A stretch of 64,000 bases of DNA from contig CANKIK010000007.1 of the NCBI GenBank assembly GCA_947481985.1, positions 2,331-66,330 of the forward strand. Reading direction: 5' to 3'. Both the position numbers and the translations under genes were made by a program. Below the pieces are notes generated by a model, which was not told the origin of the DNA, did not search any database, and saw only the letters and a program-made list of their open reading frames with translations. Each line of letters starts with the position of its first letter. The first letter of the stretch is position 1. This DNA is from Planctomycetaceae bacterium (GTDB taxonomy: Bacteria; Planctomycetota; Planctomycetia; Pirellulales; UBA1268). This document shows, one piece after another, positions 45,493 to 64,000 of the stretch.

Positions 45493-46569
45493 CTACTCTC
45501 CGCAGAGCGGTTCGGCAGCCTCGGCGCCACGGGTGATCACGAACCCCAACTCCTCGATCATCCGGTAGTCGGACTCGGGGAGTTGTCCTTTGGTGGTCAG
45601 GTAGTCGCCGACAAACATCGAGTTGGCCGCGTACAACCCCATCGGCTGAAGGCTGCCGAGGTGGATTTCACGGCCTCCTGCGATGCGGATCTCCGCACCG
45701 GGGTTCACCAAACGCATCATCGCCAAGCCACGCAGGCAATCCCGGGGCGTGAGACGGCTCGATCCCTGGAGCGGCGTTCCGTCAATGGCATTGAGGAAGT
45801 TGAGCGGGATCGACTCCACGGCGAGGAGCCGCAACTCCATCGCCATGTCGACCAGATCGGCCTGCGTTTCCCCCATCCCCATGATTCCGCCGCTGCACAA
45901 CTTCAACCCTGCCGCCCTGCAGGCAGCCAGTGTCGCCACCCTGTCGGCATATCCGTGGGTGGTGCAGACCTCGGGGTAGAAGCGCTCCGAGGTGTTGAGG
46001 TTGTGGTTGACCTTGTCGACCCCGGCTTCCGCCAGCCGTGTCGCCTGCTCGGGCGTGAGAAGCCCCAGGCAGGCGCAGATATTGAGGTCGTAGCAGGCCT
46101 TGATTTCCGGCACGATCCGGCAGACGGCATCCATCTCCCGCTCCGTGGGGCCACGGGCGGAGATCACGATGCAGAACGTCTTCGACTGCCGCTCGACGGC
46201 CAGTCTGGCTCCTTCCAGAAGCTTTGGCGCCGACAGCAGGTTGTAGCGGGGGATCTCGGCATCGGAGACCTTGGACTGCGAGCAGTAACTGCAATCCTCT
46301 GGACAGAGGCCACTCTTGGCGTTCATCAGGAAGAACAACTGCACGGTGTTGCCGAAGTGCCGCTGACGGACCCGCCAGGCCGCTGAGAGCACATCGAGCA
46401 ATTCCTCGTCTGGCGACGCCAGCAGGGCCAAGGCCTCCTCCCGCGTGATGGCTCCTCCTGCGAGCACACGATCGGCGATGGCCCCCCAAGACTGCCGGCG
46501 CGGCACCGCAGCGGCAACCGGGGTTGCGGGGCGGGACGGGGCTGCTGCCCGGGGCGGGCGAGTGGACAT
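45493..46569 (-). CDS. bioB: Biotin synthase
   Basis: Radical SAM CPEDCSYCSQS, NHNLNTS, CSGGIMGMGE, SIPLNFL, RIAGGRE, GDYLTT. Confidence 0.96.
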   Translation of the reverse strand: MSTRPPRAAAPSRPATPVAAAVPRRQSWGAIADRVLAGGAITREEALALLASPDEELLDVLSAAWRVRQRHFGNTVQLFFLMNAKSGLCPEDCSYCSQSKVSDAEIPRYNLLSAPKLLEGARLAVERQSKTFCIVISARGPTEREMDAVCRIVPEIKACYDLNICACLGLLTPEQATRLAEAGVDKVNHNLNTSERFYPEVCTTHGYADRVATLAACRAAGLKLCSGGIMGMGETQADLVDMAMELRLLAVESIPLNFLNAIDGTPLQGSSRLTPRDCLRGLAMMRLVNPGAEIRIAGGREIHLGSLQPMGLYAANSMFVGDYLTTKGQLPESDYRMIEELGFVITRGAEAAEPLCGE

Positions 46570-57689: not shown

Positions 57690-59567
57690 ATGGCTACCCC
57701 CCCCCGTGTCAAGCGTGTTTCGGGACTCGTCTCCAGACTGGCGACGATCCTCGCTCTGGCGGCACCGATCGCCCCGGCCCATGCCGGTGACTGGATGCCC
57801 CTCCTGCCGGATCAGGATTTCTACGACTTCCAACTCTTCGCTCCTCCCGATCTCCAGGAATACGAGATCTACCCCGAGCCGAGCGAGGGGATCTTCTTCT
57901 CCTACGACCGGCTGGCCTACGGCATCACCGTGCCGCGGGTGACTGGGGTGGGCACGACGCAGACCGGCCACTACATCATTCCGGTGCAGCCGATCTCGCC
58001 TGAGACCCTCGTGCAGCTCAACAACGGCAACATCCAGGCCGGGGCGGCGACCGGGGCCTCCAACGGGAGCGTGATCGGAGGTATCTACACCTTCGGGTCC
58101 GATCCGATGCAGCTCGACCTCAACACCAGCTGGATGCGAACCAAAATCTCGTGGGGCAACCGCTACGAAGGCGGCTGGATCTATGACAACCGCGGCGTGC
58201 TGCTGACCTACGCCGACCTGGGAAGCCAGTCGCAGAGTTATCAGACCAACAGCGAATTTGCCGCATCCTCCCCCACGCAGACATTCACGCAGCAGTCGGC
58301 CTCGGGAACCGGAACGACCGGCGGCATCGGCAACGCGCTGATCACCACCACGATCACCTCCACCAGCCCCCCGCCCGATCATCTCATCTCTCAGAAGCTG
58401 ATTCAGACCAACAACACCGAGATCCAAAGCGGCGGTGCGGCAATGATGATCCGCCGCGAGTTGGGCCGCCGGGGAAGCGGGACCACCGCCTCATTCACCT
58501 TCGGGCCGCGCTACGTGCAGGTCGCCGACCGCTACCACCTCGGCTATGAGAGCAATCAGTACGCCTTCAACCAATCCTCCACGGGTGGCAGCGGTGGCAA
58601 CACCAGCGGCGGCACCCAAGGCGGTGGCACCCAAGGCGGCGGCACCCAAGGTGGCGGTGGCACCCAAGGCGGCGGTGGCAACACCGGCGGCAGCCAGGGC
58701 GGCGGCAACACCGGCGGCAACCAGGGCGGCGGCCAGGGCGGCAACCAGGGCGGCGGCCAGAATGGAGCCTTTGGCAACACCGGGAACAACAACACCAGCA
58801 TCATCTATGACTCTGGCCCAGCCGGGAACGTCTTGGGAATCACCGGTGTCGATACGCTGACCGGCCAGGGCTACGGCACCGCTCTCCAGACCGGCCAGTG
58901 GCAGACCAACACCTACAACAACATGGTGGGCCCCGAGTTCGGCATGCTGTTTGAGAAGGACTGGGGCCGGTGGAGCTTCACCAGCCAGTTCAAGTTCACG
59001 GCGGCCTTCAACTGGCAGAACAACCTCTACCAGGGCTCAAACTTCCCCTCGTCGATGGGGGCCGACTACCTCCGGGCCACGTTCACGCCTTCCACGACTT
59101 ACACCTCCAGCGGCACAACGGGTGGTGCCGACGGAGGTGTCCAAAACCTCTCCGGACCGCCGCTGTTCCTGCAGATCTATGGTGTCGGCCAGAGCAACGC
59201 GACCAACGCCGCCAGCCACCAGTTTGTCTTCTCGCCGATCGGCGAATGGCGGTTCGGCGGGCAGTTCAAGGTCAGCCAGGCAATCAACCTCCGGGCTGGC
59301 TACACCGGCATGTGGCTGGGGAGCATCGCTCGGGCCTCGACCAACACCGGGTACACCAGCACGCAGAAGCCAACGCAGTACGCCGAACCGCGTGATCCGA
59401 CGGCGCCCGCCAGCCTTACCAACCCCTGGATGGTGAAGACGACCACTCCGACCGGTGCCAACGGCACCCAGCAGAGCCCAACCTACAACCGGGTCGGACC
59501 GGTGGTCGGCGGCCAGGAGTATGTGTTCACCAACGGCGTCGACTTCGGTATCGAGGTCAAGTACTGA
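57690..59567 (+). CDS. BBP7-like outer-membrane beta-barrel protein with Gly/Gln/Asn/Thr-rich insertion
   Basis: Signal peptide ending AHA; WGNRYEGG, NNMVGPEFG, INLRAGYTGMW; C-terminal beta-signal NGVDFGIEVKY. Confidence 0.75.
   Translation: MATPPRVKRVSGLVSRLATILALAAPIAPAHAGDWMPLLPDQDFYDFQLFAPPDLQEYEIYPEPSEGIFFSYDRLAYGITVPRVTGVGTTQTGHYIIPVQPISPETLVQLNNGNIQAGAATGASNGSVIGGIYTFGSDPMQLDLNTSWMRTKISWGNRYEGGWIYDNRGVLLTYADLGSQSQSYQTNSEFAASSPTQTFTQQSASGTGTTGGIGNALITTTITSTSPPPDHLISQKLIQTNNTEIQSGGAAMMIRRELGRRGSGTTASFTFGPRYVQVADRYHLGYESNQYAFNQSSTGGSGGNTSGGTQGGGTQGGGTQGGGGTQGGGGNTGGSQGGGNTGGNQGGGQGGNQGGGQNGAFGNTGNNNTSIIYDSGPAGNVLGITGVDTLTGQGYGTALQTGQWQTNTYNNMVGPEFGMLFEKDWGRWSFTSQFKFTAAFNWQNNLYQGSNFPSSMGADYLRATFTPSTTYTSSGTTGGADGGVQNLSGPPLFLQIYGVGQSNATNAASHQFVFSPIGEWRFGGQFKVSQAINLRAGYTGMWLGSIARASTNTGYTSTQKPTQYAEPRDPTAPASLTNPWMVKTTTPTGANGTQQSPTYNRVGPVVGGQEYVFTNGVDFGIEVKY
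58584..58760 (+). repeat. Intragenic degenerate tandem repeat encoding GG(G)TQ / GGNT / GGNQ units
   Basis: ggc acc caa gg x4 plus ggcaacacc and ggcaaccagggc units. Confidence 0.85.
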
Positions 59568-59606
59568 TCGCGACCTCCGTCGACGACCCACAATTCAGAT
59601 GCTGTG

Positions 59607-59651
59607 AGCGGGGTCGGAGCAAACGTGCTTCCGACCCCGCTTTCATTTTTT
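59607..59651 (+). terminator. Rho-independent terminator after the beta-barrel gene
   Basis: AGCGGGGTCGGA-loop-TCCGACCCCGCT 12-bp stem followed by TTCATTTTTT. Confidence 0.85.
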
Positions 59652-59726
59652 GCGTGGCCGTCGGTGCGGCCGGGACGGGCTGCAGGGCCGGTGAGGCCGG
59701 CGGCGGCGGCAGAGACTCGCGGTCGC

Positions 59727-60212
59727 TCAGGATCGATCGAGCCCAACGCCGATCCATCCCGCCGTGGCGCCCCGCGACTGCGAGAGCTTTTCCAGCCGGG
59801 CGGCCAGTGGCTGCCAGAGCCGCTCCCGTTCGGCGGTCGGAATTCCCCCCGGCAACTCGGCCGGCGCCCCAGCGGCATCGACTTGGACGAATCCCATCAG
59901 GCCATCCATCCAGGGCAGGTCGTGGCCTTCCAGCGGCATCCCCACGACACCCACCACGAGGTAGCACTGCCGGACCTGGAGGATCGCACCACGGAGCTCA
60001 ACCAGCGCTCCCACAGGAACGCTCCGCCGGCACTCGAGCGTCACCACGCGGCGGAGCATGAGGTTGGCCGCCGTCCCCACGCCCCGGGAGCCGGAAGCAT
60101 AGGCGGTCTCGAGCGCATAGCGCAGCAAACTGCCGGCGTAGAGCGTGCCGTGGTGATTGGCATCGGCGGGCAAGACCAGCCGGTGACTGACAGTCTCAAG
60201 AGAACCTTGCAT
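59727..60212 (-). CDS. Hotdog-fold acyl-CoA thioesterase
   Basis: VLPADANHHGTLYAG, SVPVG..VEL, FVQVD..G.P. Confidence 0.8.
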   Translation of the reverse strand: MQGSLETVSHRLVLPADANHHGTLYAGSLLRYALETAYASGSRGVGTAANLMLRRVVTLECRRSVPVGALVELRGAILQVRQCYLVVGVVGMPLEGHDLPWMDGLMGFVQVDAAGAPAELPGGIPTAERERLWQPLAARLEKLSQSRGATAGWIGVGLDRS

Positions 60213-60221
60213 GGCCGCTTG

Positions 60222-60230
60222 TTATAGCAG
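60222..60230 (-). promoter_or_regulatory. Possible extended -10 (TGCTATAAC) giving a near-leaderless thioesterase transcript
   Basis: Minus strand tgctataac ends about 10 nt before ATG 60212; no obvious RBS. Confidence 0.4.
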
Positions 60231-60270
60231 CCACCAGCGTGGGCAGGTGCCCCGCCGCCGCCACACCTGA

Positions 60271-63200
60271 TCACCACCCCGACACCGCCACACCACGGGG
60301 CGGATTCTGCCGGGAGAACGAGGGATCGATCTTCAGCAGTTCCTCGCGCATCACCGTGATCGTCCGCCGGATCTGATCGGCGGTGTGGCGGGATGTGATG
60401 AAGAACCGCAGCCGGGCCGCCCGCTCCTCGACGGCCGGATAGAGGATCGGCTGGACGCTGATCCCCCGGGCGAACAGCCCTCTCGACAGTTTCAGACTGT
60501 TGATCGAGTTGCCGAGGATCACCGGGATGATCGCCGTTCCACCGGCGGAGCCAGTATCGAGACCAGCTTCGCGGGCCAACTGGAGAAACAACCGGGCATT
60601 GGCATGGAGCTTGGCCACCCGGTCTGGCTGGCGCTCAAGCATCCGCATTGCCCCCAGCGCCGCTCCCGCCGCTGCCGGGGGTAGACCGACGCTGTAGACG
60701 AAGCCCGGCACGGTGTATTTGAGCCAGCGGACGAGGGTCTTGGTGCCGGCGATGTAGCCGCCGCAACTGCCGAGGGCCTTGGAGAGCGTCCCCATCCACA
60801 GATCGACATCGGCCGGATCGACGCCAAAGTGCTCTCCCATGCCCCGGCCGCGCGGTCCCATGACGCCGACCGAGTGCGCTTCATCGACCATCAGCAGCGA
60901 CTTGTGTTTCTTGGCCAGGGCGACAAACCGGGGCAGGTCGGCGAAATCACCGTCCATGCTGTACACCCCCTCGATCACCACCAACACCCGGCGGTACTGC
61001 CCTCGGACCTGCCGCAGCAACTGCTCGGCCGCCTCGAAGTCGTTGTGCGGGAAGGGCCGCCGTCGGGCCCCGGAGAGGATCGCCCCTTGGAGGAGACTGT
61101 TGTGGGCCAAAGCGTCGTGGAGCACGAGGTCGCCCGGGCCAACCATATGACCAATGACAGTCTCGTTGGTGGCATGCCCGCCGACGAACGTCACCGCATC
61201 CTCGGTACCGATCAGCCGGGAGATTGCCTGCTCGAGTTCCCTGTGGATCACCTTCTCGCCCGACACCAATCGGCTGGCGGAGACACTCGTGCCGTAGCGG
61301 TCGATGGCTGCCTTGGCAGCGGCATTCACCTCCGGCTCCCCCGACATCCCCAGGTAGTTGTAACTGGCCCAGCTGATCATCTCCCGGCCACCGATCTGCG
61401 TCCGGTCGTTGGTCAGCCCCTCATGGACACCGAAGTAGGGGTCCTCGAGACCGGCATCGCGCACCAGTGCGAAATTCTGCTCGAGCGCCCGCACCTCGGG
61501 AAACTCACTGATATCCCAGGCCTCGCGGGGAATCTCGCTGGTGACGCTGGCCGCTACGGCCAGATGCTGGGTGCGGCCAGCCGCGGGGAGCCCCGCGGCA
61601 GGGAGATTGTGCGTCGGCATGTGATCGAGAATCGCCTCGACCACCTCGCGGCAGGTCTCGATCTGCGGCAGCACCTGCTCGGGGAATCTGCCGCCGTACG
61701 TCTCCTCGAGGCTAGCGACAATCTCCATTCGCTCCAGCGAATCGAGTCCCAATTCGACAATGTTGCTGTCGAGCGCCAGGTTGCCGGCCCGCTCCTTGGC
61801 AATCCGCCGCACGTGATCAAAGACAGCGTCGACCACCTCGCGGGGCAGTTCCCGCTCCGGCCGGCCGCTGCGGGTGGCCTCCCCGATGGGACGCTGCCTG
61901 GCCAGCCGCGGCGTCTCGCCGCCGGTGCGCACCGGAGACTGCCGCGGCGTCTCGGTGACCGTCGAGCCAGCGATCCCCGGCTGCAACCATCCGATCTGCT
62001 GCTCCACCACCTCAAGGGTGCTGTCGAGAAACTGCCGCTTGCAGGCATGCCGCTGGATCTTGCCGCTGGAGGTCTTGGGAATGCTGTTGGGACGGACCAA
62101 GACAATCGCTTCCAGTGCGATCTCATGCTCGATCGCCAGTTGGCGACGGATGCGGTCGAACGATTCCGCCAATTCATCGCTGTCCCGCTTGCCGCGCTCC
62201 ACTTCCGCCACGACGACGACCCGTTCGCGTCCCTCCACTTCGACGGAGAACGCGGCCACGGAGCCGGCGCGGATCAGCGAGCAGGCGGTCTCCACCGAGA
62301 GTTCGATATCCTGCGGGTAGTGGTTGCGGCCACGGATGATGATCAAGTCCTTGAGCCGGCCGGTGACGAACAACTCGCCGTTGTCGAAGAAGCCGAGATC
62401 CCCGGTGCGAAGATAGGGGCCCGGGTTGGGCTGCCAGGCCTTGAGCGACTGCTTCTCCGAGCCACGATCAGGACGGGCAAGCATGGCACCGAATGTGGTC
62501 TGGGTCTCGTCGGTGCGGTTCCAGTAGCCCTGGGCGACGCTCGGTCCACTGACCCAGATTTCACCGATCATTCCTGGGGGAAGGGCTTCGCTGGAGTGCG
62601 GATCGACGATCCGCACGTCCTGACCGTCGAGTTCACGGCCGCTGCCCACAAGTCGCCGCGTCCCAGGGGAGAAACCGGTGCGGGTCAGTGCCGAGCCAGT
62701 CTCGATCGACGCAGCGTCGAAGGCCCGGACCACAGGCGGCTCGAACTTCATCCCGCCGGTCACCATCAGCGTGCTCTCCGCCAAGCCGTAGCACGGGAAG
62801 AACGCCTCGCGGCGAAACCCGCAGCTGGCAAAAGCCTCCGAGAAGGCATCGATGGTCTCGGGCCGCACCGGCTCGGCGCCATTGAAGGCCAGCGTCCAAC
62901 TGGAGAGATCGAGTCCCCGGCGCTGCTCGGGAGTGATCTTTCGGACGCACAGTTCGTAGGCGAAATTCGGTCCGCCGCTAATCGTGGCCCGGTATTTGGA
63001 GATGGCTTGCAGCCAACGCAGCGGTTTCTGCAGGAACGCAACCGGAGACATCAGGACGTTGAACTTGCCGCCATAGAGCGGCACGAGGATGCCACCGATG
63101 AGCCCCATGTCATGGAAACTCGGCAGCCAGAAGACGCCCGACTGCGAGCGGGTGATCTCGAAGGCCTGCATGATCCGCAGGGAGTTGTGTAGGAGGTTAG

Positions 63201-63774
63201 CGTGCGAAAGCATGACCCCCTTTGGCGTCCCGGTGGAACCGCTGGTGTATTGGAGGAAGGCCAACGTCTCCCCGTCAATGTCGGGGCGTTCCCAGCGTTC
63301 GGCCCAGTCGGGCTCCAGTTCGCTGTCAACCTTCCAGAGCAAACGTTCCAGACTGGGGGCTGTGGCCCGCAACCCGTCGAAGCGGTCGAGGACATCGCGT
63401 GTGGTCAACGCCACTGCGGCCTCGGCGTCGGCGGCGATGGCCTCGATCCGCTCCACCGAACGGTTCTTCCGCGGCGGGTAGGCCGGGACGGCGATCGCCC
63501 CGCCGTACAGGCAGCCCATGAAGGCGGCAATGAAATCCAGCCCGGAAGGGAAGAGGAGCAGCACCCGCTTGCCGCTCATCCCCGACGCCTGCAACCAGGC
63601 ACCGAGCGCCCGGGCCTTCCGGTCGAGTTCGGCGTAGGTGATGTTGAGCTCTTCGTTCTCGCCGTCGACGAGAAACGTGAACGCCCGATCGTGGGGGCGG
63701 TAGGCCGCCCGCTGCCGCAGCAGATCGACGATCGTTTCGGCGAACGAGGCTTCGGTATTGGGATTGGGATTCAC
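60271..63774 (-). CDS. Fatty acyl-AMP ligase - acyl carrier protein - PLP-dependent alpha-oxoamine synthase (BioF/SPT family) fusion
   Basis: FAAL: LQYTSGSTGTPKG, WLPSFHDMGLIG, PCYGLAE, LRTGDLG, IRGRNHYPQDIE, PKTSSGK. ACP: LGLDSLERME. AOS: SYNYLG, EGVYSMDGD, DEAHS, GTLSKALG (PLP Lys). GTG start at 63774 (ORF extends to 63864). Confidence 0.92.
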   Translation of the reverse strand: MNPNPNTEASFAETIVDLLRQRAAYRPHDRAFTFLVDGENEELNITYAELDRKARALGAWLQASGMSGKRVLLLFPSGLDFIAAFMGCLYGGAIAVPAYPPRKNRSVERIEAIAADAEAAVALTTRDVLDRFDGLRATAPSLERLLWKVDSELEPDWAERWERPDIDGETLAFLQYTSGSTGTPKGVMLSHANLLHNSLRIMQAFEITRSQSGVFWLPSFHDMGLIGGILVPLYGGKFNVLMSPVAFLQKPLRWLQAISKYRATISGGPNFAYELCVRKITPEQRRGLDLSSWTLAFNGAEPVRPETIDAFSEAFASCGFRREAFFPCYGLAESTLMVTGGMKFEPPVVRAFDAASIETGSALTRTGFSPGTRRLVGSGRELDGQDVRIVDPHSSEALPPGMIGEIWVSGPSVAQGYWNRTDETQTTFGAMLARPDRGSEKQSLKAWQPNPGPYLRTGDLGFFDNGELFVTGRLKDLIIIRGRNHYPQDIELSVETACSLIRAGSVAAFSVEVEGRERVVVVAEVERGKRDSDELAESFDRIRRQLAIEHEIALEAIVLVRPNSIPKTSSGKIQRHACKRQFLDSTLEVVEQQIGWLQPGIAGSTVTETPRQSPVRTGGETPRLARQRPIGEATRSGRPERELPREVVDAVFDHVRRIAKERAGNLALDSNIVELGLDSLERMEIVASLEETYGGRFPEQVLPQIETCREVVEAILDHMPTHNLPAAGLPAAGRTQHLAVAASVTSEIPREAWDISEFPEVRALEQNFALVRDAGLEDPYFGVHEGLTNDRTQIGGREMISWASYNYLGMSGEPEVNAAAKAAIDRYGTSVSASRLVSGEKVIHRELEQAISRLIGTEDAVTFVGGHATNETVIGHMVGPGDLVLHDALAHNSLLQGAILSGARRRPFPHNDFEAAEQLLRQVRGQYRRVLVVIEGVYSMDGDFADLPRFVALAKKHKSLLMVDEAHSVGVMGPRGRGMGEHFGVDPADVDLWMGTLSKALGSCGGYIAGTKTLVRWLKYTVPGFVYSVGLPPAAAGAALGAMRMLERQPDRVAKLHANARLFLQLAREAGLDTGSAGGTAIIPVILGNSINSLKLSRGLFARGISVQPILYPAVEERAARLRFFITSRHTADQIRRTITVMREELLKIDPSFSRQNPPRGVAVSGW

Positions 63775-63861
63775 GTGCCGTGGGACCTCCGCCCACTCCC
63801 GTCGAGGCCGCTGCGTGGGAGTCCGGTTGACCCCCAAGGAGTGGCGTGCGTGTGTTGGCCA

Positions 63862-63900
63862 CATGTTCCCGCGAACATGCGTTGGAGGAACGCCCGTTCC
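63862..63900. promoter_or_regulatory. Two adjacent palindromes CATGTTC-N4-GAACATG and GGAAC-N4-GTTCC (candidate operator, LexA-box-like)
   Basis: catgttc ccgc gaacatg at 63862-63879; ggaac gccc gttcc at 63887-63900. Confidence 0.45.
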
Positions 63901-64000
63901 CTATGAGCGTGCGTTCCGAGCCGGGGACACCCCCGAGTCCTCCGGGGAAATCGGCAGGTTTCCCAGCCCGAAAACAGAGTCTACCCGGGTGTACCAGACA

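Follow-up and report, generated by a model that had tools for sequence, protein, structure and literature searches.

A FAAL, carrier and alpha-oxoamine synthase fused in one planctomycete polypeptide, a candidate long-chain-base synthase

We analyzed a 64,000-nucleotide stretch of DNA from a Planctomycetaceae bacterium (assembly GCA_947481985.1, contig CANKIK010000007.1, positions 2,331 to 66,330 of the forward strand), the whole of which is called the window here. Towards its end, one intact open reading frame (ORF) encodes a fatty acyl-AMP ligase (FAAL), an acyl carrier protein (ACP) domain and an alpha-oxoamine synthase (AOS) that depends on pyridoxal 5'-phosphate (PLP). The architecture was catalogued in 2013 with no product assigned, and the fusion is the single-chain counterpart of a known tripartite system, AasR/AcpR/Spt. 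Judging from sequence, it is probably a single-polypeptide synthase of the long-chain base for a ceramide-like lipid. Beyond the 2013 catalogue entry, our literature search found no paper characterizing or describing a FAAL-ACP-AOS fusion.

Domain organization of the fusion protein

In its longest form the fusion gene spans 60271..63864 on the minus strand, starts with ATG and encodes 1197 residues; residue numbers refer to this form throughout. An in-frame GTG at 63774, where the database-called 1167-aa form (P0003) begins, is likely the true start. A first-pass annotation of the window, made from the sequence alone, described three intact domains in this ORF and no ketosynthase or condensation domain, and a Pfam scan of the fusion protein agrees on both counts. 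The FAAL domain (62002..63717, minus strand; residues 50-621) was assigned from Pfam, NCBIfam, solved-structure matches and motifs, and consists of an AMP-binding match at residues 50-448 (232 bits) and a FAAL/DIP2-type C-terminal subdomain (AMP-dom_DIP2-like) at residues 506-621. The carrier, or phosphopantetheine-binding, domain (61630..61821, minus strand; residues 682-745) was assigned from its motif and from Pfam, where PP-binding (PF00550) scores 36.7 bits against a cut-off of 20.8. The PLP-dependent AOS domain (60358..61383, minus strand; residues 828-1169) was assigned from aligned residues and an Aminotran_1_2 match of 159 bits. All four motifs quoted in the annotation are present, GLDSL at residues 706-710, SYNYLG at 834-839, DEAHS at 994-998 and GTLSK at 1025-1029, and they are kept in nine of nine aligned orthologues. 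Codon-position GC of both the fusion and the small ORF downstream is consistent with coding, with third-position GC (GC3) of 0.82 and 0.78, respectively.

The adenylation domain carries the FAAL motifs YTSGSTG (206-212), YGLAE (359-363), GDLG (488-491), GRLKD (502-506) and SSGKIQR (599-605), and its core motifs are likewise kept in the nine orthologues. Its top 15 distinct solved sequences are all FAALs or FAAL domains: 7r7e (chain g, deposited as 'polyketide synthase') is the best at 607 bits, followed by Legionella 3kxw at 483 bits and then by FadD32, FadD23, FadD28 and E. coli 3pbk. Among NCBIfam models, too, FAAL subfamilies rank first, all scoring under their full-length cut-offs. These matches uphold the earlier reading of the domain as FAAL-type and place it, by sequence, nearer to characterized FAALs than to acyl-CoA ligases. 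In the region of the FAAL-specific insertion, which blocks the use of CoA, the sequence alignment of the fusion to 7r7e, a protein that presumably carries this insertion, runs on with no long gap. The host genome (G000) also encodes a second FAAL-ACP protein of 872 aa on contig C4 (L006:7419-17661, plus strand); its FAAL is 48% identical to that of the fusion, and its gene is followed by one for a 2524-aa type I polyketide synthase (PKS) with the domains KS-AT-DH-ER-KR-ACP-TE.

The predicted phosphopantetheine attachment residue of the carrier is Ser709 (codon 61738-61740), the DSL serine retained in 9/9 orthologues. The predicted catalytic set of the AOS domain, His921, Asp994, His997 and Lys1029 (codon 60778-60780), aligns with the equivalent residues in KBL, ThAOS and LCB2a, and the domain can be assigned on this comparison as a fold-type I PLP alpha-oxoamine synthase whose predicted catalytic residues are intact.

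Comparison with the AasR/AcpR/Spt system

The proteins of the E. coli BL21(DE3) sphingolipid cluster were compared with the fusion by BLASTP. The cluster holds yghO, a gene labelled 'fatty acyl-AMP ligase' in RefSeq (AasR), an epimerase-family short-chain dehydrogenase/reductase (SDR), an ACP and spt; the accessible text of PMC9386255 gives these as aca (ECD_02850), aasR (02851), epi (02852), acpR (02853) and spt (02854). AasR matches fusion residues 72-612 (32% identity over 552 aa, E 4e-66), AcpR residues 699-746 (31% over 49 aa, E 5e-6) and Spt residues 823-1169 (31% over 347 aa, E 2e-49). Since AasR, AcpR and Spt lie collinear along the fusion, these alignments identify it as a Rosetta-stone form of the three-protein system, in the same N- to C-terminal order.

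As far as its accessible text goes, PMC9386255 reports that AasR/AcpR/Spt of Caulobacter crescentus and E. coli transfer free fatty acid onto a dedicated ACP independently of CoA, and that acyl-AcpR is the preferred substrate of the serine palmitoyltransferase (SPT). The first-pass annotation regarded the route of the fusion as distinct from that of stand-alone bacterial SPT. This stands in that all the steps reside on one polypeptide; the loading of free fatty acid without CoA, however, is already a property of AasR/AcpR/Spt as that source describes it, and the route is therefore less distinct than was held.

The two systems share a FAAL-type ligase, an ACP and a PLP-dependent AOS, all homologous and collinear, and a YghO/aca homologue occurs in the host genome. 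They differ in that a single polypeptide is found here, identities are 31-32%, the AOS domain falls under SPT cut-offs, the aca homologue is unlinked in the host genome and an additional hotdog thioesterase is attached in some families. In turn, the Rosetta-stone fusion is independent support for the view that AasR, AcpR and Spt of Proteobacteria are functionally coupled.

Two further precedents bear on the architecture. The catalogue of Milano et al. (2013; PMC3870968) lists an A-CP-PLP2 'AOS' architecture for Blastopirellula marina A3ZWL3 and Microscilla marina A1ZVW4 and, in its accessible part, enters '?' for both product and cluster type; the fusion shares this three-domain architecture with entries that include a planctomycete, a likeness at the level of architecture. 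In Pseudomonas fluorescens MYb115, according to the accessible text of PMC12134224, PfSgaAB delivers a carrier-tethered acyl chain to an AOS with SPT activity and yields sphinganines, a route that is non-canonical relative to the acyl-CoA route. There the iterative type I PKS SgaA builds the chain and the AOS is a separate protein, whereas the FAAL of the fusion would load a ready-made fatty acid.

Relatives of the AOS domain

In comparisons with solved structures, the AOS domain scores 234 bits with ThAOS, 227 with Arabidopsis LCB2a and 222 with E. coli KBL. Solved bacterial and human SPTs follow at 196-215 bits, solved ALAS and cysteate-C-fatty acyltransferase at 179 bits each, and solved BioFs score lowest, at 150-175 bits. 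Around the PLP lysine there is local similarity to plant LCB2a (GVD.ADVD..MGT..K..GSCGGYIAG). NCBIfam scores do not discriminate among the families (bioF 353, Kbl 300, SPT 291, all under their cut-offs).

A tree was built from 21 AOS rows, all of which were kept, in which Spt, Kbl and BioF of E. coli served as the only three labelled references. The 17 planctomycete sequences, whether fused, PKS-attached or stand-alone, form a single clade (SH-aLRT 99).

The host genome has three AOS paralogues. One, on contig C117 (L004:3484-5256, plus strand), aligns to the fusion from the carrier onward (43% over 521 columns) and nests within the fused-gene clade of the tree. The carrier serine is replaced in it, with GIDEAD opposite GLDSLE of the fusion, and the paralogue, which has no FAAL, appears to be an ACP-AOS duplicate whose carrier is dead. 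Its flanking genes encode an aconitase and, convergently, an MMPL/sterol-sensing-domain transporter. In other genomes, AOS domains of the same clade close open frames of 2541-2589 aa (G370:C7:389180-390694, G176:C1:6663727-6665235 and G140:C175:13273-14487); these are presumably PKS-ACP-AOS megasynthases that follow a PfSgaAB-like logic in fused form.

Distribution and association with a YghO-like N-acyltransferase

Across 151 genomes of the host's order, the fusion was found in 126 at a threshold of E<=1e-200, including 105 of the 119 genomes of good quality, and a further genome (G454) carries it below this threshold. More than 120 of the clusters listed are at least 79% identical to it. The fusion is thus near-universal in its order.

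E. coli YghO/aca matches a gene on contig C21 of the host genome (C21:5164-6273) with 36.6% identity over all 380 aa (E 1.6e-72); Pfam contains no family for either protein. This YghO-like gene is present in 133 of the 151 genomes. With G454 counted as fusion-positive and five fusion-negative genomes deduced by elimination, both genes occur together in 123 genomes, the fusion occurs alone in 4 (completeness 72-97%), the YghO-like gene alone in 10, and neither in 14. Genera g295 and g312 lack both genes (0/4 each for either gene) inside families that otherwise have both. This co-occurrence suggests a functional link between the two genes, and it can be taken as suggestive only, because related genomes are not independent.

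The YghO-like gene adjoins the fusion or a stand-alone AOS gene at four loci in three genomes. In G434 it shares the strand of the fusion and lies some 0.5 kb upstream of it, and stand-alone AOS genes adjoin YghO-like genes at two loci in G519 and at one in G492. The search at E<=1e-200 found no three-domain fusion in G519, and one of these G519 regions (G519:C1:458000-472000; L104) forms a compact cluster: beside a YghO-like gene it has a stand-alone AOS with 37% identity to E. coli Spt and an SDR that resembles Epi, with 27% identity to the E. coli protein over 329 aa (E 2e-24). In the host genome, the divergent neighbour of the C21 gene encodes an extended SDR (Pfam Epimerase).

Open frames of roughly 790-855 aa also enclose YghO-like matches in G474 (C166), G440 (C1), G539 (C737), G512 (C2) and G502 (C2). 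A single 800-aa frame of G474 contains two such matches, a layout suggestive of double N-acyltransferases fused in tandem.

Proposed function and alternatives

We infer the substrates, the product and the role of the thioesterase from domain anatomy, homology, distribution and the link to YghO. The N-terminal FAAL would adenylate a free medium- or long-chain fatty acid and pass the acyl chain to the phosphopantetheine arm on Ser709 of its own carrier. The AOS domain, through Lys1029, would then condense the acyl-thioester with an amino acid, with loss of CO2, to give a 3-keto long-chain base. A YghO/aca-type N-acyltransferase, encoded on contig C21, and a reductase could convert this base into a ceramide-like envelope lipid. 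In the subset of families that have it, the hotdog thioesterase may act as an accessory, either providing the FAAL with fatty acids released from thioesters of CoA or ACP, or clearing a misloaded carrier. The first-pass annotation had likewise proposed a lipid long-chain-base product; the anatomy of the fusion and its co-occurrence with the YghO-like gene support that proposal, and L-serine, the most likely partner of the AOS, is inferred only. If the proposed function is correct, ceramide-like lipids would be a core trait of a whole planctomycete order, given the presence of the fusion in 126/151 genomes, and the fusion would offer a clean one-protein handle on long-chain-base synthesis and on the role of the lipid in the unusual planctomycete envelope.

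A number of observations weigh against this assignment. No curated SPT equivalog model in NCBIfam scores the fusion above its cut-off, SPT-CFB (NF047600) giving 290.7 bits against 640, BetaP SPT (NF047599) 258.2 against 500 and AlphaP SPT (NF047603) 225.9 against 670. By BLASTP, E. coli Kbl (36%, E 4e-63) is a better match than E. coli Spt (31%, E 2e-49). In the tree, the comparison that the first-pass annotation had recommended, the planctomycete clade has E. coli Spt as its sister group at an SH-aLRT of only 69 and on long branches; because placement against Spt, Kbl and BioF is this weak, the tree is firm on the clade and not decisive on function. Many SPTs have an RPPATP-like sequence in the substrate-side loop, where the fusion and most of its fused orthologues read YPAVEE(S/R), so that the amino-acid partner may be one other than serine. 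The SDR beside the C21 gene is nearer to HpnA/3beta-HSD, with 241.6 bits where the cut-off is 367.65, and its match to E. coli Epi extends over just 92 aa; it accompanies the YghO-like gene at 8 of 9 loci in the family, and outside the family it lies within 6 kb of that gene at only 4 of 12. Kinship among the genomes also means that the co-occurrence table overstates the link between the fusion and the YghO-like gene. Lastly, in the literature as far as its text was accessible, we found no report of sphingolipids measured in a cultured planctomycete; what is described there is metagenome-based inference, with Spt-like genes in 138 Black Sea Planctomycetota metagenome-assembled genomes (PMC11334938). 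A long-chain-base function for the fusion would, if the fused form is among those genes, supply a genetic basis for them.

The alternative that survives best keeps the same chemistry with a partner other than serine, such as glycine, alanine, cysteate or a charged amino acid, and would give a non-sphingoid amino-ketone that is later N-acylated to an aminolipid. The SPT scores below cut-off speak for it, as do KBL and the broad-specificity ThAOS, which score level with the SPTs, the match to the structure of cysteate-C-fatty acyltransferase (179 bits), and the unusual, acidic nature of the YPAVEE(S/R) loop and its retention in most fused orthologues. Set against these are the striking similarity to LCB2a around the PLP lysine, and the YghO/aca link together with the Epi-like SDR of G519, which mirror the ceramide gene set. 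We therefore hold this alternative to be possible and rather unlikely. Its extended form, in which the acidic loop selects the non-serine partner, the core envelope lipid of the order is built on a non-sphingoid base and the thioesterase sets chain length in some families, is a similarly tentative proposal; if it were true, a single polypeptide would produce this base starting from free fatty acid, and a YghO-like enzyme would N-acylate it.

It is very unlikely that the product is a diffusible small-molecule signal of the CqsA/LqsA kind (an alpha-aminoketone or alpha-hydroxyketone), or a specialized metabolite, in place of a membrane lipid. Carrier-fed AOS enzymes do occur in secondary metabolism, and the phylum has PKS-ACP-AOS megasynthases whose AOS belongs to the same clade. 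The CqsA-type model nevertheless gives a low score, 147 bits where 428 is the cut-off, the neighbouring genes look like housekeeping genes with no tailoring genes nearby, and a near-universal distribution with such high conservation (126/151 genomes; at least 79% identity in more than 120 of the clusters listed) is not what a specialized product would lead one to expect.

The weakest alternative, raised in the first-pass annotation, is a pimelate-loading BioF that makes 8-amino-7-oxononanoate for biotin, and we regard it as highly improbable. The bioF model TIGR00858 is the top NCBIfam score of the AOS part, relatives carry the JGI name '8-amino-7-oxononanoate synthase/acyl carrier protein', and bioB (45541-46452 of the window, minus strand; 396 bits, above cut-off) lies 13.8 kb from the fusion, in line with the distance of about 14 kb first noted. 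The fusion, however, scores 352.6 bits with TIGR00858 (356.5 in a six-frame genome search) against a cut-off of 426.45. A search for a separate bioF, which that annotation had advised, found a BioF-like gene at C2:123569-124651, flanked by genes for an EVE-domain protein and a flavin monooxygenase; with 408.6 bits it outscores the fusion on this model. Its top three solved matches are BioFs (275, 265 and 264 bits), the structures that rank last for the fusion, and its loop, IRPP(S/T)V, is also that of E. coli BioF. The AOS fold and catalytic residues are common to BioF and the fusion, whereas the BioF-type loop is absent from the fusion. The biotin genes are scattered in the host genome, with bioA on contig C8 (474 bits) and bioD on C66 (152 bits), both above their cut-offs, and none of bioA, bioD and bioB is near the fusion. 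A FAAL of the long-chain type would also be an odd loader for pimelate. With a separate and more BioF-like gene present alongside bioA, bioD and bioB, the fusion is unlikely to be the BioF of this genome.

A hotdog-fold protein encoded downstream

A gene for a 161-aa protein (59727..60212, minus strand) lies 58 bp downstream of the fusion on the same strand, as the first-pass annotation had noted in labelling it a hotdog acyl-thioesterase. Neither Pfam nor NCBIfam returns a family for this protein, even at E 10. A profile of 15 members nevertheless matches the hotdog acyl-CoA hydrolase 1vpm (E 7.5e-12), with further matches to 2eis, S. aureus 5egk, ACOT7/12 and YciA HI0827. An AlphaFold model of the protein (pLDDT 82.3, pTM 0.79) has the hotdog layout of a strand, a long helix and four strands, and Foldseek returns the same enzymes for it (1vpm at E 2.2e-9; TM 0.65-0.70). 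Profile and model thus agree with the original label, and the protein is predicted to be hotdog-fold and acyl-CoA-thioesterase-like. It has in common with the hexameric hotdog acyl-CoA thioesterases (1vpm, 2eis, 5egk, YciA HI0827 and ACOT7/12) the fold and an N-terminal motif of the PxDxNxxGxxxGG type; it differs in its low identity, 16-27% among the Foldseek matches listed, and in being confined to a planctomycete clade. Asp17, Asn19 and Glu35 are invariant in 15/15 sequences of the small-protein family, and Glu35 corresponds, in the alignment to 1vpm, to the Glu of a 'DE' pair. The catalytic residues of the solved enzymes were taken from entry titles alone (Asn28Ala, Asp43Ala and Asp44Ala).

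The small gene occurs in 41 of the 151 genomes in a clade-like pattern: 8/9 in family f1, 9/10 in f111, 3/3 in f127, 6/6 in f129, 8/8 in f130 and 5/5 in f131, with one weak match in f109. That it is a chance ORF opposite 59604..60227 (plus strand) was considered and rejected, as 47-74% identity is kept in 40 other genomes. It is directly downstream of the fusion in 23 of the 32 genomes that have both genes, namely 8/8 in f1, 9/9 in f111, 4/6 in f130, 2/3 in f131 and 0/6 in f129. By tblastn, no copy was found beside the fusion in G190, G370 or G330, and the complete genome G424 has the small gene and lacks both the fusion and the YghO-like gene. Adjacency in most but not all genomes with both genes, together with the case of G424, indicates that the small gene is a real but accessory partner, in a putative operon with the fusion in at least four families.

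Genomic neighbourhood

The first-pass annotation had suggested inspecting the genes beyond position 64000. Only 432 bp of the contig lie upstream of the fusion's ATG, so the upstream genes were read from relatives instead. In two relatives of the same family we take them, from their N-termini as read by eye, to encode a KsgA-type methyltransferase, riboflavin synthase and enolase; in G190 and G370, N-termini match two or three of the upstream ORFs seen in the family relatives. In the conserved neighbourhood, as covered by the window and the relatives, no other recognisable biosynthetic gene was found near the fusion, and such surroundings fit a core lipid gene over a secondary-metabolite island. 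A scan of 59400-64000 returned no promoter-like sites and four terminator-like sites against 2.4 expected, a count that is uninformative.

Downstream, three genes keep their order across families f1, f111 and f2, encoding a secreted-looking protein of 625 aa, a 443-aa ORF that has no Pfam match, and a xylose-isomerase-like TIM-barrel protein. The first of these (57690-59567, plus strand) is convergent with the putative operon and likewise has no Pfam match; the protein is rich in Gly, Thr, Gln and Asn with GGxQGG repeats, and its gene region has a strong AT skew of 0.258.

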